In this document: positions 44,323 through 61,488 of the stretch, piece by piece | Numbering within the stretch: position 1 is the stretch's first letter | Layout of the letters: each line of letters opens with the position of its first letter | DNA from: Escherichia phage PNJ-9 | DNA length: 64,000 nucleotides | Strand: one strand, 5' to 3' | Sequence record: PQ100635.1 | Notes under the pieces: generated by a model | The model's database searches: none | What the model saw: the letters and a program-made list of their open reading frames with translations, nothing else | Told to the model about the DNA's origin: nothing | Program-made: the position numbers and the translations under genes

Positions 44323-45431
44323 TAGAAAGTCCCCGCATAAAGTGAAGAACGGTTTAATGTAATAATTTCTCGCATTGTTATCTCTAACGTAAATGTTGAC
44401 GGTAAGTTAGGAGCAACAGCGAGACCATTAAATTGTCCATTTGGAGTTTTATCAAAACGTACGCTTTGAATTTGGCATGGGCCAAATACGTCAGTTAATC
44501 CATCAAATTTAGACGTATAACCAAAGTTTTTAACCATCCAAATTGTAGGGTTGCTTACAACTAATACGTTTGTTAATGACGCAGTAATCTTTTCAAACAA
44601 TGTCTTATTTTTTACTGCATCATCCGGAGTCATAGGCTCAATAAACGTTGAACGGTACCATTCGTCTAAATAACTTTTAATCTCTTGGGCGTATTGTGAT
44701 TTACCGGTCTCACCATATGAGAAATAGTTAAAATACTGGTAAATGTTTATAATAGCCATAAGGTCTTCAGTTGAACGTGGAGTTAAATCCCATGTAAAGA
44801 CTTTAGTACGGTTCTCAGCACCGCCATACATACTACGAGAAGTCGTATAAATCTGTTCGTTATTATCGGCCATAAGCCCTTGAGTAATAGAGTCTAATGC
44901 ACCAAAAACTGCAGTAGAAGCAATGTTACTTAAAACACCCGTAGCAGTACCTCCACCTTTAGTAATAAGGCTATCACCAATATCATTAAAACGGTGTGAA
45001 GTTGTATCAACGTCAGATTTGGAACGTGGCAAAAGTATATTAGCAACAGGAGTTTTATTTATAGTAGGTTTATTAGCTCCGGCAGGAAGCAACCCATTAG
45101 AGAATTTAGTCACTGCATCTTTCACATTATCAGTTAAATCTGATATGATACCGTTAGATGAAGTGCCGGCGTATGCCGGACGTAAATTCCTGAGGGATCC
45201 TGAATCGCGTGCAGACATATTGTACGCGGTAAATAATAATCCATTCTTATAAAGATCTGTTACCTGGAAGTCTCCTGTGGAGTCATTTCCGGCTGCTCTT
45301 CCTGTAGGAAATTGAGCAACATAAGTTTTAGTAGTTGTTTCGGTTTTAGTGCTTTGCCCAGCACTTTCTGAGACTGGGATTGCTTTATTTAAATCCTTTG
45401 CATCTACTACTATTTCTTTTACACTAATCAT
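44322..45431 (-). CDS. 48: baseplate tail-tube junction protein gp48
   Basis: 369 aa; position between 29 and 54 as in T4. Confidence 0.85.
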   Translation of the reverse strand: MISVKEIVVDAKDLNKAIPVSESAGQSTKTETTTKTYVAQFPTGRAAGNDSTGDFQVTDLYKNGLLFTAYNMSARDSGSLRNLRPAYAGTSSNGIISDLTDNVKDAVTKFSNGLLPAGANKPTINKTPVANILLPRSKSDVDTTSHRFNDIGDSLITKGGGTATGVLSNIASTAVFGALDSITQGLMADNNEQIYTTSRSMYGGAENRTKVFTWDLTPRSTEDLMAIINIYQYFNYFSYGETGKSQYAQEIKSYLDEWYRSTFIEPMTPDDAVKNKTLFEKITASLTNVLVVSNPTIWMVKNFGYTSKFDGLTDVFGPCQIQSVRFDKTPNGQFNGLAVAPNLPSTFTLEITMREIITLNRSSLYAGTF

Positions 45432-45439
45432 AATAATCC

Positions 45440-47212
45440 TTAATTAACACCGGTGGCATGGAAAATTCCAGGAGCCGTTGTACTTGTTACAGGGGTCATA
45501 TTCTGGACTACGGTATTCTTTTTGACGACATTATTTGTGTTACTAATCGCCGCTACCGGTTGCTGTTGTTTAGATTCAGAAGCACGTCCTTTCTCTATTG
45601 ACTGAACTTGTTTTGCTTCAGGAGATTTAGTCGAAGATTCAGGCTTAACTGTTGTCTGAGCCTTTTTGGCTTCAGCCATTTTATTATTTAGCTTTTCAAA
45701 TCTAGCATCTAATTCCTTTTTAACAACAGGAGTTTTATTAAGTTCAGGGTCTTTAATAAGTTTACTTAAATCAGCATAAGACTTCTCGACGTTTTTAGCA
45801 TTTTCTGGATTAGTCATATCGATTTTATCGATATAATCCTCAAATCTAACTAGTGCCGCACGAGTTTCATTAGCTTTTATATACGCCTCTTTACGCTCCT
45901 CTTCAGGTAACTCTTTTAATTTTGCTGATTCCGCAGCACGCTCATCGCTTGTACTAAACTCTTCTTTATTGTCATTACCACGAACCCAGTTAGTAACGAA
46001 TGTTTTGCCGCGTTGTAACATATCAAGACCTTTAGAAACGGTTCCTAATTCCCCATCGTCACGCTTCATTTGATATTTAGCGACTTTCTCTTGGTCTTCT
46101 TTCTTTAATGTGTTCCCAGTAGTTTCTTGGAATCCTTCCAAAGCACGTCCTTCTATTTCGTCCGCGGTATCACCAAAACCTATAGCACGCAATATAGACG
46201 CAGAGAGTTTAGCCATTCCTAATTGAATTAGTTCACCTAAGTTCATTAATGCTGTTCCTACACCTTTGACGATAGCAACGGTTAAACCACCCCAGTCTCC
46301 AGCTTCCCACAATTGTTTTATCGAGTCAATAGAAGTGAAAATATCACTTAAGAATTTGCCCCACTCTTTAGCTTCATTGGAGAATTTAGTAAAGTTTTCA
46401 TCAAATAAATCCCAGGCAGAAGTGAACTTGTCTGTCCAATATTTGAAATGGACTATCAATAAATCAATACCGATAACAATACCAAGAATAAGTGCGGCCA
46501 TTTTTGCTGCTTCAATAGCAGCCGTTATAGTGTATTTGAAAAGCATTCCAGCAATTCTGTCTGAAATTGATATTGATTTATTAAACCCAGCTTGAACTGT
46601 TTTGGTGAGCATTGCAATTTTATCGCTCAATTTAAAGCTAATTCCACCTTTAGAATCGGAAGTAGAATTAGCACTTTCTTGAACTGGGGCCGGGAAGAAA
46701 TCTTCGTCTGGCTTATTATCAATCTTTTCAGGTGTAGGTAATGCTTTAAACAACTCATCAGAAGTTTCATTCTCAACCACTTTAACAGGTATTGCGTTCT
46801 CAATTACTTCAAGAGAGGTGCCTCCTGTATTTTGAATAGCGGTAGATGTTTGTAATTTTTGCTCTAATAATGTAGCTAATCGGTCTAACTTAGAGCTTAT
46901 TGCACTAGAAACTTCGTTTATACTTTTAGTGACTTCAGTTTGTTTTTCAATAACTTCTGCGATAAGCTCTGTGCCTTCAGCAGTATTATCTGTCGAATTC
47001 TTTAAGTCTCCAATTGATTCAATAATTCCGTTGCCTTTATCTTCTACACTTTGTGATGTGAGTTCAGACGCGGCTTGGACATCGTCTAGTTTTGATGAAA
47101 TGTCATTCAATGCTTCTAATGAATCGGTAGCTGCTGTTGCAGCTACTTTTTGTGGTTTATTATCGGCAATGACCTTATTTCTACGCATGGATTTCATTTC
47201 TTCAGGTTTCAT
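45440..47212 (-). CDS. 29: tail tape-measure / baseplate hub protein gp29
   Basis: 590 aa, same length as T4 gp29; extended helical/low-complexity character. Confidence 0.85.
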   Translation of the reverse strand: MKPEEMKSMRRNKVIADNKPQKVAATAATDSLEALNDISSKLDDVQAASELTSQSVEDKGNGIIESIGDLKNSTDNTAEGTELIAEVIEKQTEVTKSINEVSSAISSKLDRLATLLEQKLQTSTAIQNTGGTSLEVIENAIPVKVVENETSDELFKALPTPEKIDNKPDEDFFPAPVQESANSTSDSKGGISFKLSDKIAMLTKTVQAGFNKSISISDRIAGMLFKYTITAAIEAAKMAALILGIVIGIDLLIVHFKYWTDKFTSAWDLFDENFTKFSNEAKEWGKFLSDIFTSIDSIKQLWEAGDWGGLTVAIVKGVGTALMNLGELIQLGMAKLSASILRAIGFGDTADEIEGRALEGFQETTGNTLKKEDQEKVAKYQMKRDDGELGTVSKGLDMLQRGKTFVTNWVRGNDNKEEFSTSDERAAESAKLKELPEEERKEAYIKANETRAALVRFEDYIDKIDMTNPENAKNVEKSYADLSKLIKDPELNKTPVVKKELDARFEKLNNKMAEAKKAQTTVKPESSTKSPEAKQVQSIEKGRASESKQQQPVAAISNTNNVVKKNTVVQNMTPVTSTTAPGIFHATGVN

Positions 47213-47742
47213 TCAAGCAATCCAATAATTTCTGCTATACCCTTAATAGGGCCATTAGGGCCTGGAATAGCAATAGTTGTCGAAAGGTCTTCTGCCCATT
47301 TGATTACAAAAGCAGGCATCTCAAGGAAAGAAATTTCTTTCTCTTCGTCATTAACTTTTATTAAGCAATTTGATAGCATTTCACTGATTGTAGCGAATTG
47401 TTCAAATTTGCCTGGGGGTCTAAAATAAAAAGTATTACCTTGAAATTGGAATTCTGTTCGTTGACATACATAGACGTCATCTAGTTTATAAGTGAATCCA
47501 TCTTTTTCAACTTCAGACTTAAGTTTGTTATTAAATTCCAATATGTGTAGACATGCAAAATCAAAATCTGCGGGACTCATATTTTTACAAATAGAATCAG
47601 CTAAGATTTTCATGTTTTCGTCAGGACCTTTAACGTCCTTTAAAAGATTATAATGTTTGAGCCCTAATTTAGGAATCATTACCTTTTTATTAGACTGTGG
47701 TAGAATTATTTTCTTTAGAGGTAGAATCAGATTTAAGTTCAT
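47209..47742 (-). CDS. 28: baseplate hub distal subunit gp28
   Basis: 177 aa, same length as T4 gp28; overlaps gene 27 3' end. Confidence 0.8.
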
Positions 47743-48862
47743 TTTTAACCTTAACTGGGTTAACAGGTTCTAACACCATTGAGTTGGTAAACATGTACAG
47801 ATGAGTTTGTGAGTTGTTATTTGATAACTCATGAATAACTTCATCCACGTAAAATTCGGATTTGAATTGGTTCTTTTGGTCAACAAATATAATTTTAGTA
47901 GCAGGCGTTATGTTAAAATTACCTGTAGTAGTGCATTTAGCATATCCGTCATATTGAGCCATTGTCTGAAGACGACTTGCTTCTTCAAATCCATTACGAT
48001 AGGTCATTTCGGAATATCCGCCAGATCTTGACACAAGAATAGCATTATCACCATCACCTGTAACAATAACTGGAATAGATGTATCTAAAAATGAATGGGC
48101 GAATATCGTGGCGTTTTTAATAGGGTCTCTTGTAAATTGGTTGGCTTTAGTCATCCAGGTAAAATCCCATACTAATGGATACTCAAGCTCTTGAATATAC
48201 TGACCTACAGTATTTGGCTCACCTACAATCATCTTAATGCCTTCCTGACCAATAAGAGTATCGTAGTCAATCATGTTTACGCCTAAAATATCTTGCCATA
48301 CGAATACGAACTTATCACTCGCTGTAGCAAGTCCTAATTCTCTGACATATGCCAAATAATCATCAAATGTGCTTGTCCAAGGAATATCAGGAACATAAGC
48401 ATTAATAGTGTTTATTGGCGGAGTAATTAACGTACGGTCTTTATATATAACACCTAACATTTCACGTATAGATTCGCCTGCGTCCGAGAAGAATGGACGC
48501 CCAAATTTAAGGTTCTCTATAGAATGTATTGTTCCAAGCTCAATTGCAATAATATTGTCACCTTTTGAGTCTACAGACACAGAATAATGTCTACATCCAT
48601 AAATTCGAGTTCTAACTTGGAGAGGTGTGTTTGAATTTGAAACAGAGATTTGAACTATTTGTCTACCGTCCATTTTAGTGTGGATGTTTTTAGTGTCATA
48701 AAATTGAAGAATCCCTTCATTTCTTCCATATAGCGAATCTCGCATAGTTAAAGTTGTTATTGTTGCTGCGAGTTCAACATATCTATTTTCTTGCCAAGCC
48801 GAATAATCTTGATATAATTTAACGCTTAAGTTAGGATATCCTGGACGTTGGAATACTGTCAT
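47690..48862 (-). CDS. 27: baseplate hub subunit gp27
   Basis: 390 aa; position and length as T4 gp27. Confidence 0.85.
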
Positions 48863-49611
48863 TTTTTATGGTCCTTTTCTACTAATGTTAAAGCAATACC
48901 ACGTTCAACAGGAATCATTTGCATAATAGAATCCAATGTGTATTGACTCTTTACTAGTGAATGGTTTATCTGATAGAATGTAAAAATCTCATCAGGGTTA
49001 ACTAACAATTTAAAAACCTCTAAGATATCAGTATATGTTTTAACATGTCGTTCACAACAACCTAATCTAAGGGTCAAATTAATAGGATTCATAGAAGCAA
49101 TAACCTTCTCAAGAGAGTCAATATCTATTGCTTCTATTACTTGGATTTGGTTCTCTTCAGTCAAATCATTCCATGGGTACCATTCATCGTTATAATATAT
49201 TTCTTTTATGTTTTCACTTATCATTAATGCTTTATTGTCATAAAACTTTTCAGGGAAAGAAAAACGTATTTTTATACCAGCAACATCAAGTTCAGGTTCG
49301 ACTAGTTCTTTTTGATATATCTCGAATGGTGCAGTTTTTTCTTTAGAGCATTTAGGGCAAGTGAAAATAACGGGAACTTTTGTTTTGCCTATAGAGCCTG
49401 CAAAAACTTGCAGGAATATAAATGGTTGCCATGTTTTAGGGTACTCGCCAAAATAATCATCAATCAGATCGGCAATTATTTCTTTTTGTTCTTGCGGCGA
49501 ACGATGTTCGATATCATTTCTAACTAGTAAAAAGTCTCTATAATCCGCCACAGTGAACGGCTTAAAACGATGAACACCATCCGGTAATTTACAACGAATT
49601 ATATTAGCCAT
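48859..49611 (-). CDS. 51: baseplate hub assembly catalyst gp51
   Basis: 250 aa; position and length as T4 gp51. Confidence 0.85.
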
Positions 49612-49628
49612 AATTACTCCTTTTCTAT

Positions 49629-49636
49629 TATTTATA
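49629..49636 (-). promoter_or_regulatory. late promoter TATAAATA for gene 51
   Basis: Exact TATAAATA on - strand 18 bp upstream of gene 51 start; overlaps divergent + strand late promoter. Confidence 0.6.
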
Positions 49637-49640
49637 AATA
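49633..49640 (+). promoter_or_regulatory. late promoter TATAAATA for gene 26
   Basis: Exact TATAAATA 19 bp upstream of gene 26 start; part of palindromic TATTTATAAATA. Confidence 0.6.
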
Positions 49641-49658
49641 CACAATAAAGGAGTTAAC

Positions 49659-50285
49659 ATGTACAAATATACGTTTACCGTACGTTTAGGCGATAAAGAA
49701 GTGAATTGTAGAGCCTTTACTTTAAAAGAATATTTAGGACTCATAGGTGCACGGGCTACCGGTACTATTGAATCAGCAGTGAACAATATTATCACTAATT
49801 GCTCTAATGCTAAAAACTTGACTAAACAAGAAGCCGAGCTATTGTTGGTAAATCTTTGGGCACATTCATTAGGTGAAGTGAATCAAGAACACACCTGGAA
49901 TTGTTCCTGTGGGCATTCATTTCAAGTCTATATGAATTTATTGCACACTCAATTAGATGAACAGGCCGATCCCTGGTATTCGTTCAGCGGTATTAAAATT
50001 AAGTTCCGTCAACCTAAATTATTTGATGATAAAAATATAGCATTAATGATTGCTTCGTGTATTGAGGCCGTTTTTGTCAATGGAGAGTCTATCCCTGTTG
50101 AAGATTTAACTGAAGCAGAAATAAACGACCTTTACGGTCTTATAACAGAAGATGACATGATCAATATTAAAAATCTTTTGGTATCGCCATCAATTTATCT
50201 GGCAACCCCTATTAAATGTCCCAAATGTGGGGCGTCACACGTTCACACAATACGAGGCCTCAAAGAATTCTTTGAGTTACTATAA
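49659..50285 (+). CDS. 26: baseplate hub subunit gp26
   Basis: 208 aa, same length as T4 gp26; divergent from gene 51. Confidence 0.85.
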   Translation: MYKYTFTVRLGDKEVNCRAFTLKEYLGLIGARATGTIESAVNNIITNCSNAKNLTKQEAELLLVNLWAHSLGEVNQEHTWNCSCGHSFQVYMNLLHTQLDEQADPWYSFSGIKIKFRQPKLFDDKNIALMIASCIEAVFVNGESIPVEDLTEAEINDLYGLITEDDMINIKNLLVSPSIYLATPIKCPKCGASHVHTIRGLKEFFELL

Positions 50286-50683
50286 TGTCTAATATCAATA
50301 AACTTTATTCAGATATCGACCCAGAAATGCGTATGGATTGGAACAAGGACGTTGCTCGTTCTGTAGGACTTCGTTCTATTAAAAATAGTCTTCTTGGCAT
50401 AGTGACAACTAGAAAAGGCTCACGCCCCTTCGACCCTGAATTTGGATGCGATTTGGTCGACGAACTTTTCGAGAACATGACACCACTTACAGCCGATACG
50501 ATTGAGCGTAATATCCAGGCAGCTGTTCGTAACTATGAACCACGCATCGACAAACTTTCTGTAAGCGTAACGCCAGTATATGATGACTATACGGTTATAG
50601 TAGAGATTAGATTTTCGGTCGTAGACAACCCTGACGATATTGAACAAATTAAACTTCAGTTAGCGTCAAGCAATAGAGTGTAA
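50285..50683 (+). CDS. 25: baseplate wedge subunit gp25
   Basis: 132 aa, same length as T4 gp25. Confidence 0.85.
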   Translation: MSNINKLYSDIDPEMRMDWNKDVARSVGLRSIKNSLLGIVTTRKGSRPFDPEFGCDLVDELFENMTPLTADTIERNIQAAVRNYEPRIDKLSVSVTPVYDDYTVIVEIRFSVVDNPDDIEQIKLQLASSNRV

Positions 50684-50708
50684 TGCTTCAAGGCAACCTA
50701 TGTATAAT
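50682..50708 (+). promoter_or_regulatory. MotA-dependent middle promoter of uvsY
   Basis: MotA box aaTGCTTCA (50682-50690), 12-bp spacer, TATAAT 50703-50708, at the gene 25/uvsY junction as in T4. Confidence 0.65.
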
Positions 50709-50763
50709 GGTTTTAGGTCCTTCCGATACAGCCGGGAGATTATTAGTTAAAAGAGAGAACATT

Positions 50764-51177
50764 ATGAAGCTGGAAGATTTACAGGAAGAGTTAGACGCAG
50801 ACTTAGCTATTGATATGACAAAGTTGCAATATGAGACGGCGAATAATGTTAAGTTATACAGCAAATGGCTACGTAAGCACTCATTTATTCGTAAAGAAAT
50901 GTTGCGTATAGAGACTCAGAAGAAAACTGCTCTAAAAGCAAGATTAGACTACTACTCGGGACGAGGTGACGGTGATGAATTCAGTATGGACCGATACGAG
51001 AAATCTGAAATGAAAACTGTCCTGGCTGCAGATAAAGATGTGCTTAAAATAGAGACTACTTTACAATACTGGGGAATTTTACTTGAGTTCTGTAGTGGTG
51101 CACTTGACGCAGTTAAGTCTCGTAGTTTTGCACTTAAACATATCCAAGATATGCGAGAATTTGAAGCGGGGCAATAA
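50764..51177 (+). CDS. uvsY: recombination mediator UvsY
   Basis: 137 aa from ATG 50764 (track ORF 50683 is a spurious upstream extension); M.LEDLQEEL...D.TKLQYE.ANNV.LYSKWL.KHS matches T4 UvsY. Confidence 0.9.
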   Translation: MKLEDLQEELDADLAIDMTKLQYETANNVKLYSKWLRKHSFIRKEMLRIETQKKTALKARLDYYSGRGDGDEFSMDRYEKSEMKTVLAADKDVLKIETTLQYWGILLEFCSGALDAVKSRSFALKHIQDMREFEAGQ

Positions 51178-51401
51178 TGCGTTATTCGATTGAAGATGCC
51201 TTTAATAATGATGAAGAATTTGAAACTGAAATTAAATTCTTAATGGAAAAGTATCGTCTACGTCGCCAGGATATTCGTATTCTGGCAGACCACCCTTGTG
51301 GCGAAGACGTCCTTTATATTAAAGGGAAGTTTGCCGGGTACATCGACGAGTATTTTTATACAAAAGATATGGGTATCGATATGTGCATGCGAGTAGTATA
51401 A
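51177..51401 (+). CDS. hypothetical protein (74 aa)
   Basis: ORF overlapping uvsY stop (ATGA). Confidence 0.5.
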   Translation: MRYSIEDAFNNDEEFETEIKFLMEKYRLRRQDIRILADHPCGEDVLYIKGKFAGYIDEYFYTKDMGIDMCMRVV

Positions 51402-51404
51402 ATA
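51397..51404 (+). promoter_or_regulatory. late promoter TATAAATA
   Basis: Exact TATAAATA 30 bp upstream of small ORF at 51434. Confidence 0.45.
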
Positions 51405-51433
51405 GATATGTAATTTCAACTTAGGAGGCAATC

Positions 51434-51601
51434 ATGTCAGATAAGATTTGTGTTGTCTGTAAAACTCCAATCGATTCTACATTGGTTGTTGAAACAGACA
51501 AAGGACCAGCACATCCTGGGCCTTGTTATAATTATGTCCAACAAATGCCGGTTTCAGAAAGTTCAGAAGAGCAATTGAACGAAACCCAACTTTTACTATA
51601 G
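51434..51601 (+). CDS. small Cys-containing protein (55 aa), below the ORF-track length cutoff
   Basis: Strong AGGAGG RBS 6 nt upstream of ATG 51434; CVVC...PGPC could form a zinc ribbon; stop TAG 51599-51601. Confidence 0.45.
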   Translation: MSDKICVVCKTPIDSTLVVETDKGPAHPGPCYNYVQQMPVSESSEEQLNETQLLL

Positions 51602-51626
51602 TGTTACCTTTTTTGCCTATGGTTTT

Positions 51627-51656
51627 GGCCCTTCCAAAAAGGTCGGGCCTTTTTTT
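51627..51656 (+). terminator. terminator-like hairpin with U-run
   Basis: GGCCC...GGGCC stem (13-nt loop) followed by UUUUUUU. Confidence 0.4.
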
Positions 51657-51658
51657 AA

Positions 51659-51892
51659 TTAGAAGTCTTCTTCCTCATCCTCATCATCGTCGCCTTCAAG
51701 TTCGGCACGCTTACCTGCTAAGGCATCCCTGACAGAAATATCATCTGTATCTTTTAATTCCGTTTCTTTTATACGTTTCTTATAATAAGCTTCCAATTCT
51801 TCAAGCCCTTCTAAGGTATGACAACTAGCAATTTTACCCATGAATTCGTCAATAGATGCTTCGTATAAAAATTGTTTAAATTCAAGTACCAT
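51659..51892 (-). CDS. uvsW.1: UvsW.1 (small acidic protein downstream of uvsW)
   Basis: 77 aa; MVLEFKQFLYEASIDEFMGKIASC.TLEGLEELEAYYKKR.KETELKDTDDISVRDALAGKRAELE and acidic tail match T4 UvsW.1. Confidence 0.75.
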   Translation of the reverse strand: MVLEFKQFLYEASIDEFMGKIASCHTLEGLEELEAYYKKRIKETELKDTDDISVRDALAGKRAELEGDDDEDEEEDF

Positions 51893-51917
51893 TTTTATCT
51901 CCTAAGGGCCGAAGCCC

Positions 51918-53432
51918 TTATAAATTAATTGTTTTCATTACATAGTTAAATTTCTCATCAGCGTAACGTTGGATACGATCAATACCGTGTTTTAACAAGT
52001 AATTAAGATGAGTATACTTCTTTTTAGTATTTAATGATTTAGGTTTTACACCTGCGTCATCGATGAGATCCCAAACTGTAGCAACAGCTTTAGAACCATG
52101 CTTACGAAGCACGCGACCTACGGTTTGAAGTACGATAATTTTTGATTTAACACCATGGGCGAAAATAACATGATGAAGATTCTTGACTGAAATACCAGTA
52201 GAGAATACTCCATATGATGCGACAATAATAATGCCTTTACCATTTTCTGCCATGACTTTAAGCGCGTTACGTGTTTCAGTATCAACTTCACCTGATACGT
52301 AATAAACTTTTTCGTATCCAAGCTCTTTAATAGCTTCAAATATTTCTTTACCGTGTGTAACGTGTTTAAACATTACAAAGGCGTTCTCGTCTTTCTTAGC
52401 CAATTTGACTGAAAGTTGAGCAATCCACTTTGTACGTCGTTTTAGTCCAGTAATAATTTTAACTTCTTCTTGGTATGTTTTACCTTTTAATTTAACGGCG
52501 AATTCGTCCGGATAACGAAGGAAAATACTATTAATCTTAAGCTCAGTTACCTGTCCGTCTTCCATTAATTTAGACGTGCTAACAGGACGGAAGATTTCGC
52601 CGAACATACCTACGTACTGCATTACATTAGCTTTTCCGTCTCTTAATGAGCCAGATAAACCGAATTTAAACATGCAATTATTTAATCCTGAGATGATTGA
52701 AGAAATACTTTTGCCTGTGGCTAAGTGGCATTCATCGTTCATCATCATACCGAACTGAGAGAACCATTCTTTAGGCTGCTTAACTACTGTTTGCCATGTA
52801 CCAACAATAATTGGAGCGTCGTTTTTAGATTTGTCTGCTTTATCAGCACCACCGCCAATTTTCTTAATCATCGAATGACTAAACAAGCGATAATCAACAA
52901 AATCATTAGCCATTTGGGTTGTCAATGCTGTTGTAGGGACGATAATGAGAATTTTACCTTCATAGTTCTCTAGATAATATCGAGCTAAAAGTGCTTGGAT
53001 TAGTGATTTACCTGCTGATGTCGGAAGGTTTAAAATTCGACGACGGTTAACTAGTCCTTCATATACTGCATCTTTTTGATACCAATGTGGTTCGATTTTG
53101 GCGTTGCCTGAATAAATTTCTTGTTTAGAAAGCCATGCGTCAAAATCTTCCCTGGTAAGGTCTTCTGTCTCAAAGATTTTAGGGTCAATCCATACAGAAT
53201 AACTCATATTGTTACAGAACTTTTTTATTTGTCCTACAAGTCCATATGGTAACAAACGGTTATAATCTAAAAGTCGAATTCTACCATCCCATTGCCCATA
53301 GCGATATTTTGGGTTAAATTTATACCCGTCAGCTTCAAAACTAAAAAAGTCACGAAGTTCGTAAAACGTACTTTCGTCGCATTCAATGCGCACGTGACTA
53401 AAATCATAAAAATGTACTTTAATGTCAGTCAT
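51918..53432 (-). CDS. uvsW: DNA/RNA helicase UvsW (SF2)
   Basis: 504 aa; Walker A (PTSAGKS), DECH box (NDECH), SF2 helicase motifs; length as T4 UvsW. Confidence 0.9.
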   Translation of the reverse strand: MTDIKVHFYDFSHVRIECDESTFYELRDFFSFEADGYKFNPKYRYGQWDGRIRLLDYNRLLPYGLVGQIKKFCNNMSYSVWIDPKIFETEDLTREDFDAWLSKQEIYSGNAKIEPHWYQKDAVYEGLVNRRRILNLPTSAGKSLIQALLARYYLENYEGKILIIVPTTALTTQMANDFVDYRLFSHSMIKKIGGGADKADKSKNDAPIIVGTWQTVVKQPKEWFSQFGMMMNDECHLATGKSISSIISGLNNCMFKFGLSGSLRDGKANVMQYVGMFGEIFRPVSTSKLMEDGQVTELKINSIFLRYPDEFAVKLKGKTYQEEVKIITGLKRRTKWIAQLSVKLAKKDENAFVMFKHVTHGKEIFEAIKELGYEKVYYVSGEVDTETRNALKVMAENGKGIIIVASYGVFSTGISVKNLHHVIFAHGVKSKIIVLQTVGRVLRKHGSKAVATVWDLIDDAGVKPKSLNTKKKYTHLNYLLKHGIDRIQRYADEKFNYVMKTINL

Positions 53433-53461
53433 GTCAAATTACCATGTAATAAATATAGTTA

Positions 53462-53469
53462 TATTTATA
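53462..53469 (-). promoter_or_regulatory. late promoter TATAAATA for uvsW
   Basis: Exact TATAAATA on - strand 30 bp upstream of uvsW start. Confidence 0.55.
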
Positions 53470-53482
53470 ATGAGGAAATACC

Positions 53483-54151
53483 ATGATCGATAAAGACTAT
53501 ATTGAAGAGTTACGTGCTCTTTCTGATAAAAAGGAAGCCAAAGCTAAACTGTTTGAATATGCGGAACAATTTGGCATTAGTGTTAAGAAAACAAAATCAT
53601 TCGACAATATTGTTATTGATATCGAAGAAGCTCTTAACGCACTGGCTGATGAACCATTACCTGAAACTGATGGATTATCTATCACCGATTTAATTACTGC
53701 CGCAGATGATGTGGACGGTGTTAATTTCACCAACGAAGAAGTTAAAGAAGAAGCTATTCTGTTGTTTGATTCTCCAACAGAACAAGTTGAAGTATTAGAA
53801 GTTGTCGAACAAGAAAAAGAATTCGACCATGATAAATTCGAAGAAGCAATTACTCAGGTTGTTGAATCTGAAAAAGAGCCTGAGGCAGAGGTAAATAAAG
53901 AAGTAAAATTTGTTCTGCCTGAAAATTTTAGTCCTACACTCATTAAATTAGGCAAAAGCCCAGGATATGTTACTGTTCCTTGGTGGATTTATCAATGGAT
54001 AGCCGAAACCCCAGATTGGAAATCTCGCCCAACTAGTTTTGTGCATGCTTCTGCTCACCAAACATTATTTAGCTTAATTTATTATATTAATCGCGATGGA
54101 TCAGTTCTAATTCGTGAATCTCGTAATTCTTCTTTCGTAACATTAAAATAA
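53483..54151 (+). CDS. Inh-like protein (putative prohead protease inhibitor), assignment by position
   Basis: 222 aa acidic protein in the T4 inh position next to hoc; GAGGA RBS; sequence homology not verified. Confidence 0.45.
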   Translation: MIDKDYIEELRALSDKKEAKAKLFEYAEQFGISVKKTKSFDNIVIDIEEALNALADEPLPETDGLSITDLITAADDVDGVNFTNEEVKEEAILLFDSPTEQVEVLEVVEQEKEFDHDKFEEAITQVVESEKEPEAEVNKEVKFVLPENFSPTLIKLGKSPGYVTVPWWIYQWIAETPDWKSRPTSFVHASAHQTLFSLIYYINRDGSVLIRESRNSSFVTLK

Positions 54152-54160
54152 GGATAACTT

Positions 54161-55012
54161 ATGGCTTTTACAGTTGATATAACTCCTAAAACCCCTACTG
54201 GAGTTATAGATGAGACTAAGCAGTTTACTGCTACTCCCAGTGGTGAAACTGGAGGTGGAACTATTACCTATGCATGGAGTGTAGACGGTGCTCCTCAAGT
54301 AGGATCGGCAGAAACTTTTGATTATGTGTTAAAAGGACCTGCTGGAACAAAAACAATTAAAGTTGTTGCAACAAATACTATTCCTGATACTGACGCTGAA
54401 ACAGCAGAAATTACTACGACTATCACGGTTAAAAATAAAACTCAGTCAACTACGTTGGCAGTAACTCCTAATAGTCCTGCTGCTGGAGTGATTGGAACTC
54501 CTGTTGAATTTACTGCTGCTTTAGCTTCTCAACCATCAGGCGCATCTGCTACGTATCAGTGGCATGTAGATGATTCTCCTGTTAGTGAAGCAACTTCTGC
54601 TACATTTAATTACACTCCTTCCACAAGCGGAGTTAAAACAATTAAGTGTGTAGCTCAAGTAACCGCGACAGATTATGATGCAAAGGAAGTTACTTCGAAT
54701 GAAGTATCACTGACTGTGAATGATAAAGTTGCTCAAGAACCAGAAGGTGAATTACCTTATGTTCATCCTCTTCCACATCGTACTTCAGCTTACATCTGGT
54801 GCGGTTGGTGGGTTATGGATGAAATCCAAAAAATGACCGAAGAAGGTAAAGATTGGAAAACTGAAGATCCAGATAGTAAATACTACCTGCATCGTTACAC
54901 TCTTCAGAAGATGTTGCAAGATTATCCAGAAGTTGATGTTCAAGAATCACGTAATGGATACATCATTCATAAAACTGCTTTAGAATCTGGTATCATCTAT
55001 ACCTATCAATAA
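54161..55012 (+). CDS. hoc: outer capsid decoration protein Hoc, short form (two Ig-like domains plus capsid-binding domain)
   Basis: 283 aa; first ~180 aa and last ~95 aa near-identical to T4 Hoc (376 aa) as recalled, with one internal Ig-like domain absent. Confidence 0.85.
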   Translation: MAFTVDITPKTPTGVIDETKQFTATPSGETGGGTITYAWSVDGAPQVGSAETFDYVLKGPAGTKTIKVVATNTIPDTDAETAEITTTITVKNKTQSTTLAVTPNSPAAGVIGTPVEFTAALASQPSGASATYQWHVDDSPVSEATSATFNYTPSTSGVKTIKCVAQVTATDYDAKEVTSNEVSLTVNDKVAQEPEGELPYVHPLPHRTSAYIWCGWWVMDEIQKMTEEGKDWKTEDPDSKYYLHRYTLQKMLQDYPEVDVQESRNGYIIHKTALESGIIYTYQ

Positions 55013-55014
55013 TC

Positions 55015-55042
55015 GTAAGGGGCTTCGGCCCCTTTCTTCGTT
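55015..55042 (+). terminator. rho-independent terminator after hoc
   Basis: AGGGGC-UUCG-GCCCCU hairpin followed by U-rich tract. Confidence 0.65.
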
Positions 55043-55113
55043 TTTAAAGCATACAAAACACATCTTGAGATTGATGTGTATAATGGCACAAACCAAATAA
55101 TACGGGATTGATT

Positions 55114-55308
55114 ATGAGAGCTGAAGTTGAAGTTTATACATTACATGAGGCGGGATTTTCATTCGTAGAAATTGCTCAAAAAATCGGTTTACAACCTAAA
55201 GAAGTTGGATTACTATGGACTAAAGCCGAGACAGCTCGGTCAAAGTTTAAAGCAAAAGAAAAAGTTGTATACCGTAAACGTTTGATTAACAAAAAGGTGA
55301 AGAAATGA
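55114..55308 (+). CDS. hypothetical protein (64 aa)
   Basis: Start at ATG 55114 (track start 55108 is TTG); candidate extended -10 TGTATAAT at 55074-55081 upstream. Confidence 0.4.
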   Translation: MRAEVEVYTLHEAGFSFVEIAQKIGLQPKEVGLLWTKAETARSKFKAKEKVVYRKRLINKKVKK

Positions 55309-55556
55309 GTTTTGCACAGGAATTAAGAGAAAGGGCCCTGGCCACTAAAGCCAATTTGTTGAAAGATTTTATTGCTAACTTCTCTGTGATGGCAGAGAAA
55401 GCCGCTGACAAAGGCCAGACACAATTTACATACTATCCGTCAAAGAATGATTTAACTATCACCGAGCAAATCGGGGAGTGGTTCCGTGATAACGGCTTTC
55501 AGTACAAAATTAATCACGACCAGCGTGATGGGCACTGGATAGAAATCAAGTTCTAG
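55305..55556 (+). CDS. hypothetical protein (83 aa)
   Basis: ORF overlapping previous stop (ATGA). Confidence 0.5.
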   Translation: MSFAQELRERALATKANLLKDFIANFSVMAEKAADKGQTQFTYYPSKNDLTITEQIGEWFRDNGFQYKINHDQRDGHWIEIKF

Positions 55557-55557
55557 T

Positions 55558-55584
55558 ATGCTTTACATTTTTTGATGGTATAAT
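55558..55584 (+). promoter_or_regulatory. putative MotA-dependent middle promoter upstream of rnlB
   Basis: MotA box aTGCTTTA (55558-55565), 13-bp spacer, TATAAT 55579-55584. Confidence 0.5.
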
Positions 55585-55675
55585 GAATCTAGGTTCTATC
55601 CATTCAAATTAAACATTGGGTCAGAGATAGAGTCTCTGCTAATTATTTTGATATTATTATTTATAATGGTGATTT

Positions 55676-56683
55676 ATGTTTAAGAAATACAGCAGTCTTG
55701 AAAACCACTACAACTCTAAGTTTATTGAAAAACTCTACACTAATGGTTTGACTACTGGTGTTTGGGTAGCACGTGAGAAAATCCATGGGACCAACTTCTC
55801 GTTAATAATTGAACGTGACAACGTCACATGCGCCAAGCGCACAGGCCCTATTCTTCCAGCAGAAGATTTTTACGGCTATGAAATCGTACTCAAGAAGTAT
55901 GATAAAGCTATTAAAGGTGTTCAAGAAGTCATGGAAAGTATTTCAACTTCAGTGCCGGTGTCATATCAAGTCTTTGGTGAATTCGCCGGTGGTGGAATCC
56001 AGAAAGGTGTTGACTACGGTGAAAAAGATTTTTATGTGTTCGATATCATCATAAACACGGAAAGTGATGATACTTATTATATGAGTGATTACGAAATGCA
56101 AGATTTCTGTAATACGTTTGGTTTTAAAATGGCACCAATGCTTGGTCGTGGAACATTTGATTCTCTTATCATGATTCCAAATGACCTTGATTCAGTCTTA
56201 GCCGCTTATAATGCTACTGCGTCAGAAGACCTTGTCGAAGCAAATAATTGTGTATTTGATGCTAATGTTATTGGCGATAATACAGCAGAAGGTTATGTTC
56301 TGAAGCCTTGTTTCCCTAAATGGCTGCCAAACGGTACTCGTGTAGCTATTAAGTGCAAGAACTCTAAATTCAGTGAAAAGAAAAAGTCTGATAAGCCTAT
56401 TAAAACTCAGGTTCCATTAACCGAAATTGACAAAAACTTGCTTAATGTTCTAGCTTGTTATGTTACATTAAATCGTGTTAATAATGTGATTTCTAAGATT
56501 GGGACTGTAACGCCAAAAGATTTTGGCAAAGTGATGGGATTGACTGTTCAAGATATTCTGGAAGAAACTTCTCGTGAAGGTATTGTATTAACATCATCTG
56601 ATAATCCGAATCTTGTTAAGAAAGAATTGGTCCGAATGGTGCAAGATGTTCTGCGTCCTGCATGGATTGAATTAGTATCATAA
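55676..56683 (+). CDS. rnlB: RNA ligase 2
   Basis: 335 aa; [21 protein letters not shown]...[26 protein letters not shown] (ligase motif I KxHGxN) near-identical to T4 Rnl2. Confidence 0.9.
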
Positions 56684-56717
56684 TAAAAAAAGGGACCTTA
56701 CGGTCCCTTTTTTTTTT
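56684..56717. terminator. bidirectional terminator between rnlB and gene 24
   Basis: A7-AGGGACC-UUAC-GGUCCCU-U10: hairpin flanked by A-run and U-run between convergent genes. Confidence 0.75.
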
Positions 56718-57999
56718 ATTCATCAATGATAATTTTTGGTAGTTTAACACCGAGTAAAACAGACAAGTCTGAACGTCCTGCCATTTTATCCATGTCCCCG
56801 CCATCAATTATTCTCGCTTCTTTTTCATCTTTTGCTACTGTGTAAGGATTTGCTGATAAAGCATATCTAACCAATAATCCGATAGACGGTTGCAAGCTTT
56901 CCGGATCAACTACAACTTTAAATGCACCAACATGTTCTGGGTCATCTAAATCTACTCCTTCAGTGTATGGAGCATAAAAGATGGACCCTACAATTTCTTT
57001 TTCGCCGAGATTTTCTACAACACCCACAATAACATAATCTAATGGGCTGTTGGTATCGCAGTAAAGAGGTAATCCATTTGCCAAGAATCCATAAGCATTT
57101 TGTGAAAGATACTTGTCATCTTCTGGCTTATGTTTTAACCAACCAGAAGCAGCAAGAATAGCAGCTGCACGAGCTGAGGCTACACAAAACGTTGCAGTAT
57201 AAGTTGTCTCTTTTTGAATGTGTGATACCATTTCACACACCATTCGATATAATGAACGACCTGCTTCTGGAGCGGATGCATAGCTCAAGTCAATAAATCC
57301 GGTGTCAGTAATTCCAGTAACTTTATAGCGTTTAGATACAGTAATTAAAGACTGAAGAATATCTTTATTAATTTCATCAGCCATTTCAGTAGCAAGCAAA
57401 TCTTCTAAGAAGTTAGGGGCATCAAATCCATTCGCTTCCAAATCTTGCGCTAATTCAACCGTGAGGCCAGTTTTAAGTTTACGAGATTTGACTGAAGTTT
57501 GCCATTTATTAATCTGGAATCTTGCATCAGAAATTTCGCTACCCGAGCTTTCAAATTTGCTTGTTACCGCTGCATCTGAAAATAACCGTACCTTTAAATG
57601 AACGATTGCAATCTGAAGAGCTAATTCTAGATCACTTTCTTGAATATCTGCAAACGGTGTATCTTCTAACACTTTATAGACGATATTATTATATTTGAAA
57701 AAATCGCCTTTATTTAGTGTGACTTTTGATTCTTCTGTGAGCTCAGTAATTTTTTCTCGGTCTACATATCCAACTTCGCCTGCATAAGTAGCGCCAGTTT
57801 TAAATGTGAATTCGTTATCTGGGTTAAGATATTTGATACCATAAAAAGCAGCAACAGGTTGATTAGTTCTTTGTGTTGCTACAATGTCAGAATATATTAA
57901 TTTAGTCGTAGCGCGAGTCAAAGCAACGAGATTTGGGCGACCAATTGAGTTGCTAGTAGACGTTGTAGATTCACGCAATAATTTTTGGATTTTACTCAT
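56716..57999 (-). CDS. 24: head vertex protein gp24
   Basis: 427 aa, same length as T4 gp24; gp23-like fold family; position between 23 and rnlB. Confidence 0.9.
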   Translation of the reverse strand: MSKIQKLLRESTTSTSNSIGRPNLVALTRATTKLIYSDIVATQRTNQPVAAFYGIKYLNPDNEFTFKTGATYAGEVGYVDREKITELTEESKVTLNKGDFFKYNNIVYKVLEDTPFADIQESDLELALQIAIVHLKVRLFSDAAVTSKFESSGSEISDARFQINKWQTSVKSRKLKTGLTVELAQDLEANGFDAPNFLEDLLATEMADEINKDILQSLITVSKRYKVTGITDTGFIDLSYASAPEAGRSLYRMVCEMVSHIQKETTYTATFCVASARAAAILAASGWLKHKPEDDKYLSQNAYGFLANGLPLYCDTNSPLDYVIVGVVENLGEKEIVGSIFYAPYTEGVDLDDPEHVGAFKVVVDPESLQPSIGLLVRYALSANPYTVAKDEKEARIIDGGDMDKMAGRSDLSVLLGVKLPKIIIDE

Positions 58000-58029
58000 T
58001 GCATTTTTTCCTTATTGAGAATATAATTT

Positions 58030-58037
58030 TATTTATA
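58030..58037 (-). promoter_or_regulatory. late promoter TATAAATA for gene 24
   Basis: Exact TATAAATA on - strand 31 bp upstream of gene 24 start. Confidence 0.55.
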
Positions 58038-58043
58038 AAAGTG

Positions 58044-58076
58044 GTTTACACACAAAAAGCGTTGTGTTACTATAGA
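58044..58076 (+). promoter_or_regulatory. sigma70-type early promoter
   Basis: GTTTACA 58044-58050, TACTATAGA -10 region. Confidence 0.55.
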
Positions 58077-58087
58077 CCTATCAAAAC

Positions 58088-58369
58088 ATGAGGAGATTAA
58101 AAATGAACAAATTAAACTTTATCCGTACCACACTTTCTAACCTTGACAAAGACATCAAAGCTCTGGTAGAAAAATTTGGTACCAATCCTAATGGTAATGC
58201 AGTTAATGCATTGGTTAAGAAATACGAAGCCCTGGCTTATGAAACTGACTTCTGGTGGAACGGTGAATATTCTACCCATACCAAAGACAAATCTGGTAAC
58301 TGGCTGAAAATCCAAGAAAATCGTATTGACTTCCGTGATATCATCAACCGTCGTGTCAAAGCAGCGTAA
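58088..58369 (+). CDS. hypothetical protein (93 aa; may start at ATG 58103)
   Basis: ORF with GAGGAGA RBS after promoter; directly precedes homing endonuclease gene. Confidence 0.45.
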   Translation: MRRLKMNKLNFIRTTLSNLDKDIKALVEKFGTNPNGNAVNALVKKYEALAYETDFWWNGEYSTHTKDKSGNWLKIQENRIDFRDIINRRVKAA

Positions 58370-58372
58370 ATT

Positions 58373-59032
58373 ATGAATTATTTAATTTACAAAATAACCA
58401 ATCTCATTAATAACAAGATTTATATTGGAGCCCATGCCACTACAGATGTTAACGATTCTTATATGGGTTCCGGGGTTAACATAGTAAAATCCATAAAGAA
58501 ATACGGCTTAGAGAATTTTAAAAAGGAAATCCTTTTCAATTTCGAAACATCTGAAGAGATGTATGCTAAGGAAGCCGAACTAGTTGACGAGGCTTTTGTC
58601 ATGAGAACAGATACTTATAATGCCGCCTTAGGCGGCAAGGGTAATCCTGTTATAGTAGCTTTACAGGAACCTGGGTATCGTGAGATGTTATCCGAAAAGA
58701 CAAAAGCTGGTATGACTGAAGAAGTTCGGGCCAAAATATCTAAAAAGAAATTAGGTTCTAAAGAATCTAAAGAACATCGAGAAAACAAATCTATATCAAA
58801 TAAAAAGTTTTATAAAAATAGAGATTCTCATCTTAAAGGTAGAAAACTATCAGAAGAGCATAAAGCAAAAATTAGAAAGAATTCTAATAAAGGTAAGAAA
58901 TTTGTATTTGTGGATATTTCTATTAAAGGTCATGAATTTAACCACTACGATTACGCTGCCGAATTCTTTAACGTATCCGCAAAAACTATAAGAAATTGGA
59001 TTAATGAACGCGATGATTGTTTTAAGCTATAG
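58373..59032 (+). CDS. GIY-YIG homing endonuclease (SegD-like, freestanding between genes 24 and 23)
   Basis: 219 aa; N-terminal GIY-YIG module (YLIYKITN.INNKIYIGAHAT....DSYMGSG) and Lys-rich C-terminal DNA-binding region. Confidence 0.75.
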   Translation: MNYLIYKITNLINNKIYIGAHATTDVNDSYMGSGVNIVKSIKKYGLENFKKEILFNFETSEEMYAKEAELVDEAFVMRTDTYNAALGGKGNPVIVALQEPGYREMLSEKTKAGMTEEVRAKISKKKLGSKESKEHRENKSISNKKFYKNRDSHLKGRKLSEEHKAKIRKNSNKGKKFVFVDISIKGHEFNHYDYAAEFFNVSAKTIRNWINERDDCFKL

Positions 59033-59042
59033 AAACAAGAAT

Positions 59043-59060
59043 GGGAGACCGAAGTCTCCC
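59043..59060 (-). terminator. UUCG-tetraloop hairpin after gene 23 (also 3' of the + strand HEG)
   Basis: On - strand reads GGGAGAC-UUCG-GUCUCCC, identical to hairpins at 19800 and 35568; downstream U-run is weak. Confidence 0.5.
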
Positions 59061-59089
59061 ATAAGGTTATGTATTTTAACGTTAAAGCA

Positions 59090-60658
59090 TTAAATTCCTT
59101 TAACGTAGACGCGTCTAAAGTAAGCGTTCTTACCAAGGCTGTTCAGGATAGACGGCATACCGGACTGGATGCGAGCACCTGGAGCCTGCAGGGAACTTTC
59201 AGCAAACGGGTTGACACCGATACCGTAACGAGTTTTAAAGCCCATTACCGGCTGGAAGTTCTTAGGATCGGAACCACGCAGTGGGGTAAGTGCAACGTAA
59301 GGAGCATAGTAAATACCTGCATCCATTTCGTTAGCGCCTTTGTAACCAACGGTGAAGTAATCCTGTTTAGCATACTGGTCGATATATACGCGGTATTTAC
59401 CACCAAGTACACCGGCAAATACAGATTTAGTAGTGTCGGTATTAAAACCAGAAGCCAGACCCTGTGCAGCATAAGAAATACCAGTATCAACTGAAGCCAG
59501 TACGTTAACTACGTTACGGGAAGCGATAATGAAGTTACCTTCACCACGACCGGTTTGACGAGCAATTTCAACTGCTTCTTTATCAATCTGGAACAACAGA
59601 GATTTAAAGCTTTCACCGGCCCAACGAGCACCACGGATATCAATCGGGTCCTGGAAGTCAAATACGCCAGCTTTAGAACCCGGAGTCAGGGTCATACCAG
59701 ATTTACCAACCTGAGCGGAGTAGTTAATCCAGTCAACAACTTCACGGTTGATTTCCAGCATAATTTCAGTAGCAAGAATACCGCTCAGTTCAGCATCAGC
59801 ATCCATACCGTGTACTGCACGGAGGTCTTGTGCCAATTCGATGGAGTAAGCTGCTTTCAGCTGACGAGATTTAGCTTCAATAACTTGTTTGTCGATACGG
59901 AAGCCCATTTCGTTCCACGGGTTGTCGGTAGAACCATTGAAGCCTTCCTGAAGTTCAGCGATAGAAGTGGCCATACCTTCAGCGATTTCTACCAGTGCAC
60001 CAGCTTCCATTTGTTTCTTAATTTCAGCATCTAATTTAGTTGCATCGGTAGCACCAGCATCAATTGTTACTACAGCGGAAGCTTGTAGATACACAGTACC
60101 AGTGTCCTGGAAGAAGTGAGTATAGATATCACCTACAACGGTTTGTGTGCTAGCAGCCAGAGCTGGGAATTTCTTAGCAGCACCCTGACCAGAGAACATC
60201 GCGTCTGGAGCATACATCGGATGGAAAGCTTCTTTAGCGTCAGCAGCGATAGGGTCTTTACCATATACTGCACGGAGAGCAAATACCTGACCGGTAGGGC
60301 TGTTCATAGGCTGAACACCACAAATATCAAAAGCGATCAGATTAGGAATAGCACGACGAACCATACCCATAACTGCCGGCCCAATTTGGGTTACTGCACC
60401 AGAGGTTTGACCTGCTGCGATGTTCTGAGCATTATAACCATGGTCCCCACCAATTTCAGCTTCGGTCAAGAAAGAACCAAATGCCTGAGCGATTTTCTCG
60501 TCTTTATATTCAGGGGATACTTCGAAATCTTTTTCCTGGTTTTCGAAGATTTTAGCGATAATAGCCTGCTTGCTATTAGCGATTTCCGGCAGGCCTTCAC
60601 CTTCCAGCAGTTCTTTCCATTTGTCTACGAGCTGAGCTTTAGTTTTGATAGTAGTCAT
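59090..60658 (-). CDS. 23: major capsid protein gp23
   Basis: 522 aa; near-identical to T4 gp23 as recalled, including N-terminal propeptide region cleaved by gp21. Confidence 0.95.
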   Translation of the reverse strand: MTTIKTKAQLVDKWKELLEGEGLPEIANSKQAIIAKIFENQEKDFEVSPEYKDEKIAQAFGSFLTEAEIGGDHGYNAQNIAAGQTSGAVTQIGPAVMGMVRRAIPNLIAFDICGVQPMNSPTGQVFALRAVYGKDPIAADAKEAFHPMYAPDAMFSGQGAAKKFPALAASTQTVVGDIYTHFFQDTGTVYLQASAVVTIDAGATDATKLDAEIKKQMEAGALVEIAEGMATSIAELQEGFNGSTDNPWNEMGFRIDKQVIEAKSRQLKAAYSIELAQDLRAVHGMDADAELSGILATEIMLEINREVVDWINYSAQVGKSGMTLTPGSKAGVFDFQDPIDIRGARWAGESFKSLLFQIDKEAVEIARQTGRGEGNFIIASRNVVNVLASVDTGISYAAQGLASGFNTDTTKSVFAGVLGGKYRVYIDQYAKQDYFTVGYKGANEMDAGIYYAPYVALTPLRGSDPKNFQPVMGFKTRYGIGVNPFAESSLQAPGARIQSGMPSILNSLGKNAYFRRVYVKGI

Positions 60659-60675
60659 TTGTGTTAACCTTTAAA

Positions 60676-61488
60676 TTAGAAACGAGATGCGACTTTCGCA
60701 TATAAACTTACATTAGAATTCTGTTCTACCTGAGTTGTGGTAGTGTCAACTGCTTCGGCAACAAAATTAAGACCGGCAGCGTCATTGTCAACTGTATTTA
60801 TACTTTCGGTAATAGCGGCTTCTTCTTTAGTAGAACCTTTAACCATTTCTACAATAGCAGTTAACTTAGTACCAAATGCGTCAGAATAATCCATACCTTC
60901 AACCAGGCCAATAACTTTTTCTTTCTGAGATTCAGTCAGGTCTTTTACGCTTTCATTAATAGCGGTTTCACGCTGAACGTAATTGATATATGCATCACGT
61001 TTGGTAACTTCTTCGAACAAACGAGCGGTTTCTTCTTTATGTTCGGCCAGCTCTTCTTCCATTTCTGCTACAACATCTACAGATTCTTCTGGAACAACAA
61101 CGTTATGTTCAACAAACAGTTCTTTCAGACCACCAAGCATGGATTCGAACAAATCAGCTTTAATGCCTTTATCAACTGCGATTTGGTTTTCTGCGAGCCA
61201 TTCTTTTGCAAGATGGTCTAGGAATTTAGAAGCTTGTTCAGCCAATTTTTTATCAGCTTTCTCTTCAGCATCTTCTTTAGCCTTTTCAACTTCTTCTTCG
61301 GCCTTTTCGGCGATGGCTTTGATATGAGATTCAGCCAGTTTGACTGCTTCCTGCTTAACGGTGGCTTCGAATACAGTGCTGAAATTAGCTTTAACGTCCG
61401 GAGACAGTTCTACTGATTCGAAAACACTATTAAGAGCAACTGAAGTCTCGATGTTTTGAGCTTCTTTCAAAAGTTGTTCTTTGATCAT
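60676..61488 (-). CDS. 22: prohead core scaffold protein gp22
   Basis: 270 aa; Glu/Lys-rich helical scaffold, C-terminal YAKVASRF matches T4 gp22. Confidence 0.85.
   Translation of the reverse strand: MIKEQLLKEAQNIETSVALNSVFESVELSPDVKANFSTVFEATVKQEAVKLAESHIKAIAEKAEEEVEKAKEDAEEKADKKLAEQASKFLDHLAKEWLAENQIAVDKGIKADLFESMLGGLKELFVEHNVVVPEESVDVVAEMEEELAEHKEETARLFEEVTKRDAYINYVQRETAINESVKDLTESQKEKVIGLVEGMDYSDAFGTKLTAIVEMVKGSTKEEAAITESINTVDNDAAGLNFVAEAVDTTTTQVEQNSNVSLYAKVASRF

Follow-up and report, generated by a model that had tools for sequence, protein, structure and literature searches.

The short hoc allele of Escherichia phage PNJ-9 encodes a Hoc protein without Ig-like domain 3

The hoc locus and its product

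The stretch of phage DNA analysed here (64,000 nucleotides, hereafter the window) carries on the + strand, at 54161..55012, a hoc coding sequence of 283 codons and a stop codon, which corresponds to a short allele devoid of domain 3. According to the ORF list, the frame of this interval is intact, with one stop only, at its end. The surrounding genes follow the order uvsW (- strand), inh (+ strand), hoc, two small ORFs, an Rnl2-type RNA ligase gene and the capsid vertex gene (- strand), that is, the arrangement uvsW/inh/hoc/24.3/24.2/rnlB/gene 24 annotated in T4, AV112, AV117 and PNJ-6. Synteny is fixed by the upstream neighbour, a homologue of inh, the inhibitor of prohead protease (53483..54151, + strand; ORF list and annotations of the same four phages).

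Immediately before hoc, a Shine-Dalgarno-like AAGGA read from the sequence (54150..54154, + strand) is located 6 nt 5′ of the ATG and overlaps the inh stop codon; it would be the ribosome-binding site of hoc. On the other side, a terminator scan detected an intrinsic-terminator-like hairpin, AAGGGGCTTCGGCCCCTT, followed by a T-run (55017..55044, + strand), 5 nt past the hoc stop. This hairpin is GC-rich and the annotation of phage WFL6982 has a terminator at the same place. A search of the + strand for the T4 late promoter TATAAATA gave no copy ahead of inh or hoc; the only one nearby is on the - strand (53462-53469), upstream of uvsW and within the 50-nt uvsW-inh spacer (53433-53482). Over the whole window this late-promoter core occurs 16 times where about 7 copies are expected, a number reached by 0 of 100 shuffles. 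We also observed that the spacer at 53433-53482 carries no homing-endonuclease gene; in the T4 record, that position is occupied by a GIY-YIG nuclease gene (144-761 of the T4 locus, L001).

The reference for comparison was T4 Hoc, 376 aa long, as available in PDB 5vf3_Z and four more entries and in the T4 record OL964735.1 (CDS 1501-2631 of L001). The ORF list, PDB and this record agree with the lengths given in a preliminary description of the locus, 283 aa here and 376 aa in T4. A phmmer search against 5vf3_Z (E = 7.5e-164) placed residues 1-191 of the window protein on T4 1-191 and its C-terminal part on T4 residues up to 375. The limits were refined by multiple alignment and codon view: the window Hoc is made of T4 residues 1-187 and 281-376, while nothing in it corresponds to T4 residues 188-280 (93 aa, 279 nt) and the reading frame is preserved, which accounts for the length observed (376 - 93 = 283). 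The break lies between N187 and D188, the latter aligning to T4 A281, and the junction maps at 54721..54722 (+ strand), where full-length alleles carry the 279 nt of domain 3; in pairwise alignments to PNJ-6 and AV117, all 279 reference-only columns fall after window position 54720. The clean, in-frame absence of the third Ig-like domain proposed beforehand is thus borne out by phmmer, multiple alignment and codon view. Its placement, however, has to be corrected. The deletion had been put after DKVA, whereas the true junction reads ...SLTVN|DKVAQEPEGE, DKVA belonging to the C-terminal side, where it matches DKVAPEPEGE of full-length Mosigvirus alleles. Two objections raised at the same time, that T4 Hoc might be equally long or that the deletion might be a frameshift yielding a pseudogene, were checked by alignment and neither holds.

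In T4, the capsid-binding domain has been defined as residues 281-376 and its structure solved (Fokine et al. 2023, PMC10385173). The window Hoc therefore comprises T4 domains 1 and 2 and the capsid-binding domain, the whole Ig domain 3 being gone. As judged from sequence comparison, the absent unit is exactly Ig-like domain 3 with its linker, and the capsid-binding domain is intact. Thus, whereas T4 Hoc has four domains (PDB 5vf3, 8t1x and others), the window Hoc has three, in the same family and at the same gene position.

Ig-like domain 1 (aa 1-91; 54161..54433, + strand) shares 74 of 91 residues (81%) with T4 domain 1 and is modelled by AlphaFold as a beta-sandwich (pLDDT ~90). Ig-like domain 2 (aa 92-187; 54434..54721, + strand), which ends with S183-L184-T185-V-N187, is identical to T4 domain 2 at 80 of 96 positions (83%). 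That this second unit is indeed domain 2 was established by scoring each T4 domain separately: it has 80 identical residues against T4 domain 2 and 36 against domain 3. The capsid-binding domain at the C terminus (aa 188-283, numbered domain 4 in T4; 54722..55009, + strand) is the most conserved part, with 88 of 96 residues (92%) identical to T4 281-376, compared with 154 of 187 (82%) for domains 1 and 2 together. Homology to T4 Hoc, as first claimed, is therefore confirmed, but these values fall short of the near-identity then assumed. The nearest full-length allele is that of Mosigvirus AV117, with 177/187 identical residues in domains 1-2 and 92/96 in the C-terminal domain.

Two properties of the protein, along with the conserved gene position, place it among Hoc: the C-terminal domain homologous to the capsid-binding domain of T4 and the N-terminal string of Ig-like beta-sandwiches, here two instead of three. 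The AlphaFold model, built on a shallow alignment of 20 homologues, shows two all-beta domains over residues 1-187 (pLDDT ~90), and its C-terminal domain is poorly modelled (pLDDT < 50); the 92% identity to the solved T4 domain suggests that the latter adopts the same fold. Foldseek against PDB retrieved tandem-Ig proteins as well as the crystal structure of RB49 Hoc (3shs, E = 2.5e-6). Pfam PKD and Ig-like families did not reach their gathering thresholds, with scores of 22.0 bits for PKD (cut-off 23.5) and 22.2 for PKD_4 (cut-off 27), for domain 2 only; the sub-threshold PKD match covers aa 99-161 (E = 1.6e-4). Domain prediction, suggested as a check, consequently gave support for the Ig-like units through the model and Foldseek but not through Pfam, and we assigned the domains from homology to T4 Hoc and from the AlphaFold model.

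One Hoc monomer occupies the centre of each gp23* hexamer in T4, and the T4 Hoc fibre measures 180 Å for four domains (PMC10385173). By analogy, the C-terminal alpha/beta domain (aa 188-283) would fix a single Hoc monomer in the middle of every major-capsid-protein hexamer, and the two remaining Ig-like domains would stick outward as a fibre. Scaled from the T4 value, the three-domain fibre should be about one domain shorter than that of T4, roughly 135 Å.

A mosaic tract around hoc

The overall sequence is that of a Mosigvirus with a PNJ-6-like backbone, rather than of T4. The PNJ-9 genome has been reported to be 99.75% identical to PNJ-6 (PMC11853027), and our pairwise alignment gives 99.45% identity of the window to PNJ-6 along the 21.3 kb lying upstream of the junction. 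This identity is unevenly distributed. The two phages display 0-1 mismatches per 500 nt over 44000-52000 and 60500-61092 (the end of the PNJ-6 match), whereas over approximately 52000-60500 mismatches rise to as many as 34 per 500 nt. The genes touched by the divergent tract are uvsW (3′ part), inh, hoc, 24.3/24.2, rnlB, gene 24 and gene 23 (its start).

Within hoc itself two types of sequence are joined. Domain 1 is closest to AV117 and PNJ-6 and differs from AV112 at 36 of 273 nt. From about 54550, the window becomes nearly identical to AV112, from the last part of domain 2 across the junction and the C-terminal domain (2 mismatches in the 288 nt of D4) to about 400 nt past hoc. Alignments to AV112, AV117 and PNJ-6 locate the crossover inside domain 2, at 54450-54600: upstream, there are 1-4 mismatches per 100 nt to AV117/PNJ-6 versus 11-15 to AV112; downstream, 0-1 to AV112 versus 11-12 to AV117/PNJ-6 (at 54500-54700). 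Since hoc is nearly AV112-identical from about 54550 and is surrounded by a PNJ-6-like backbone, the short allele was imported ready-made: it entered this backbone by recombination, within a mosaic tract some 8.5 kb long, and does not represent a fresh deletion.

The opposite possibility, a deletion arising de novo in the lineage of this phage, say while a PNJ-6-like phage was being isolated or passaged, could find an argument in the close PNJ-6 backbone reaching up to the junction and in the fact that Hoc is dispensable in the laboratory (PMC10385173). Yet the junction region is precisely not PNJ-6-like (per 500 nt, 27-34 mismatches to PNJ-6 at 54000-55000 and none at 44000-52000), and the end of D2, the junction and D4 nearly equal those of AV112, which already has the N187|D188 junction. 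We thus regard a de novo event as highly improbable.

As for the original event, domains 2 and 3 agree at no more than about 57% of nucleotides and 33-38% of residues, and a search for breakpoint homology that could explain the deletion revealed no shared word longer than 5 nt at the two breakpoint neighbourhoods. Homologous unequal crossing-over between D2 and D3 was considered for the N187|D188 junction and is not supported, the longest word shared by the breakpoints being 5 nt. The deletion was probably illegitimate and in register, and would have survived as exactly one folding unit was removed.

The same tract contains an insertion (58096-59028) that separates the capsid vertex gene from the major capsid gene and that PNJ-6 and AV112 do not have. 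Two ORFs are found there on the + strand, one of 93 aa without family match (58088..58369) and one of 219 aa (58373..59032) encoding a SegD-like GIY-YIG homing endonuclease (Pfam SegE_GIY-YIG, E = 9e-5, just below cut-off). Phage F2 has a ‘SegD’ region with which the insertion shares 99.8% of its nucleotides, and a 1.1-kb query spanning the insertion is covered to at least 80% by 37 phage records. AV112 was considered as the donor of both the short hoc and the SegD-like gene and was rejected, as it does not carry that gene; the mosaic tract therefore has more than one donor. It is tempting to imagine that hoc is a recurrent hot spot of whole-domain copy-number change, that the 52000-60500 stretch is a gene-conversion tract which brought in the short allele, and that endonuclease-driven co-conversion moves hoc length variants between phages. 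This proposal, which we consider rather unlikely, would tie together three separate observations: the mosaic tract, the inserted endonuclease gene and hoc length variants that arose independently at least five times.

Carriers of the allele and other Hoc length variants

Other carriers were searched for by tblastn of the window Hoc against 50,697 phage records, keeping full-length, single-piece, high-identity matches. These were EP01 (92.2% identity to the window Hoc, Tequatrovirus), AV112 and AV113 (91.9%, Mosigvirus, the genus being taken from the AV112 record), RPN187 (91.5%, Mosigvirus), KIT06 (90.4%, Tequatrovirus), BYEP01 (87.2%, Tequatrovirus) and AV111 (84.4%, Mosigvirus), the last with a different breakpoint. 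The first six display the same architecture and the same junction codons as the window, with 87-92% protein identity, so that the comparison with hoc alleles of other T-even phages advocated in the preliminary description extends the deletion junction to at least six deposited genomes of two genera. These six carriers come from Denmark, Thailand, China and Viet Nam, and the only labels given to their Hoc proteins are ‘capsid and scaffold protein’, ‘PKD domain protein’ or ‘hypothetical protein’. A junction-specific DNA pattern was not found in IMG/VR nor in JGI metagenome contigs.

The 283-aa alleles differ from each other by up to 12% in nucleotides, without indels, and their pairwise dN/dS values range from 0.11 to 0.33; the allele is therefore old and under purifying selection. 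The shared junction suggests a single origin. The allele would have arisen once, when the 93-codon domain-3 unit was deleted in register from a three-Ig ancestor, and would then have spread among Tequatrovirus and Mosigvirus phages by recombination.

At least four other Hoc domain-number variants were encountered (164, 280-282 and 472 aa). They differ in their breakpoints or in the unit lost or gained and are therefore independent events. Hoc of F2 and JQD51 (280 aa) has the organization D1-D3-D4, that of EH2 (281 aa) consists of a D1/D2 chimera followed by D3, and AV111 (282 aa) carries a D2/D3 chimera. In the JQD51 record (PV204681.1, L015), labels appear shifted, the inh homologue being called ‘putative helicase’, hoc ‘hypothetical protein’, and ‘Hoc-like head decoration protein’ being attached to the small ORF downstream of hoc. 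The shortest form, of 164 aa, is found in WFL6982 and WFK: domain 1 is cut at about residue 75, without its last strand, and joined to PEGELPYV... of the capsid-binding domain, so its lone Ig unit (L009 601-1095) is probably unable to fold. Conversely, many Hoc protein clusters (within P0001-P0031) have 472 aa and a tandem duplicate of domain 2 (D1-D2-D2′-D3-D4), and the P0029 protein (378 aa) combines the domain 2 duplication with an AV111-type D2′/D3 chimeric crossover. Beyond these two genera, Dhakavirus MX01 (282 aa, L013) and Klebsiella phage Wolf_ER13 (280 aa, L014) encode two-Ig proteins whose second Ig unit is closer to T4 domain 3 than to T4 domain 2. They are D1-D3-D4 and thus keep domain 3 without domain 2, the opposite of the D1-D2-D4 found here. 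Variable domain number in Hoc is already in the literature (Fokine et al. 2023, PMC10385173; Wu et al.): 650 Hoc homologues with 1 to 10 Ig units have been described (Fokine et al. 2023, PMC10385173). Across Tevenvirinae the conserved C-terminal domain is common to all variants while the string of Ig units varies, phage Muldoon having 10 Ig domains.

Given that two-Ig Hoc is normal in genera such as those of MX01 and Wolf_ER13, one could ask whether this form is ancestral and domain 3 a later gain of T4-type phages. The two proteins concerned, however, miss domain 2 and not domain 3, and most of the Tequatrovirus and Mosigvirus records and protein clusters listed have a Hoc of 376 aa. Moreover, D1-D2 of the window are closer to full-length AV117 (177/187) than to the other 283-aa alleles (91.9% over the whole protein for short AV112), so that the short alleles nest inside three-Ig diversity, and the other junctions of the short alleles of AV111, F2, EH2 and WFL6982 show that deletions recur. 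An ancestral two-Ig form is accordingly very unlikely. Finally, a missing domain due to an assembly or sequencing artefact or to a frameshifted pseudogene can practically be dismissed: assemblers can collapse tandem repeats such as the Ig domains, each of about 93 codons, but the low nucleotide similarity of domains 2 and 3 and breakpoint words of at most 5 nt make read-level collapse implausible, the gene has an unbroken frame ending in its only stop, the junction is common to six independently sequenced genomes, dN/dS indicates selection, and the PNJ-9 gene has been cloned and expressed and Hoc detected on the phage by antibody (PMC11853027).

Mucus binding by the three-domain Hoc

The short Hoc of the window is correctly described but is not new, since it has already been reported and tested for gut-mucus binding (PMC11853027). 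Over 54194-55009 the window does not differ by a single nucleotide from the published Hoc domain constructs of Escherichia phage PNJ-9 (Table S1, PMC11853027), D1 matching exactly at 54194-54487, D2 at 54434-54721 and D4 at 54722-55009, and residues 12-283 of its Hoc are the same as those of the published protein (P12-Q283). PNJ-9 Hoc was described as lacking Domain 3, with D2 defined as N92-N187 and D4 as D188-Q283 (Fu et al., J Virol 2024/2025, PMC11853027), limits that fit the window Hoc residue for residue. Both are 283-aa D1-D2-D4 proteins in which N187 is fused directly to D188. Length (Q283), junction and PNJ-6-like backbone are those of PNJ-9 (GenBank PQ100635), and no difference was detected over aa 12-283. 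By hoc and backbone, the window would thus derive from PNJ-9 or from another phage with this hoc allele. An exact look-up of the window Hoc in a collection of 15 billion proteins did not find this sequence.

What is known of the protein on virions and of its binding to MUC2 and fucose comes from the literature. Antibodies against recombinant PNJ-9 Hoc recognise phage particles, and Western blot shows Hoc on virions (PMC11853027). Blocking with anti-Hoc abolishes gut adhesion of PNJ-9, and removal of mucus lowers its adherence (PMC11853027). In co-immunoprecipitation, MUC2 is bound by domain 2 only, not by domain 1 or domain 4, and M13 phage displaying domain 2 adheres to colon (PMC11853027). 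In PNJ-9 Hoc, S183/L184/T185 of domain 2 are reported to mediate binding to the fucose of MUC2: single mutants at any of these positions lose binding, and fucosidase-treated MUC2 is no longer bound (PMC11853027). The codon view confirms S183, L184 and T185 at positions 183-185 of the window Hoc, for which MUC2 binding is that published for the identical protein. These experiments also bear on the earlier proposal that a shorter fibre could alter adherence to mucus, which had thus already been put to the test on this very sequence (Fu et al., PMC11853027). Taken together, they indicate that this three-domain Hoc (D1-D2-D4) still mediates adherence to intestinal mucus via MUC2 fucose.

In the sister phage PNJ-6, whose Hoc has four domains, the binding determinant was mapped to E29 and G33 (PMC11150434), so that PNJ-6 Hoc binds via domain 1 and PNJ-9 Hoc via domain 2. 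The adaptive D246N change of T4 Hoc sits in domain 3, in contrast with the published PNJ-9 determinant in domain 2 (PMC11853027). We noticed that S183, L184 and T185 hardly vary among the 376-aa and 472-aa Hoc alleles either and that, in the AlphaFold model, they lie within the last beta-strand of domain 2 (residues 182-187), just before the junction. The published substitutions are S183P, L184Q and T185A (Table S1, PMC11853027). Because the three residues are nearly invariant and belong to a beta-strand, and because one substitution introduces a proline, these mutants could lose binding through destabilisation of the domain and not through removal of contact residues.

We conclude with high confidence that the gene is the PNJ-9 hoc allele, which encodes a natural and functional three-domain Hoc (D1-D2-D4), probably arose by a single in-register deletion and has spread by recombination. 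This conclusion is built on the observed identity of the gene, the exact deletion, the intact frame, the identity with PNJ-9, the other carriers and the mosaic origin.

T4 phage display and vaccine work rely mainly on Hoc as their scaffold, and Hoc also acts as the effector in the ‘bacteriophage adherence to mucus’ model. A natural Hoc with three domains therefore matters for the length of the fibre, the spacing of antigens and the binding of mucus, questions already raised and partly tested for this exact sequence by Fu et al. (PMC11853027). To these, the present analysis adds that the allele is present in at least six other phages of two genera and is under purifying selection, that recombination brought the short hoc into this genome, and that hoc has undergone several independent whole-domain losses and one domain duplication. 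The thread that may be called new, in a loose sense only, is the recurrent change of domain copy number in hoc, with the short allele in a mosaic tract and a SegD-like gene in the same tract.
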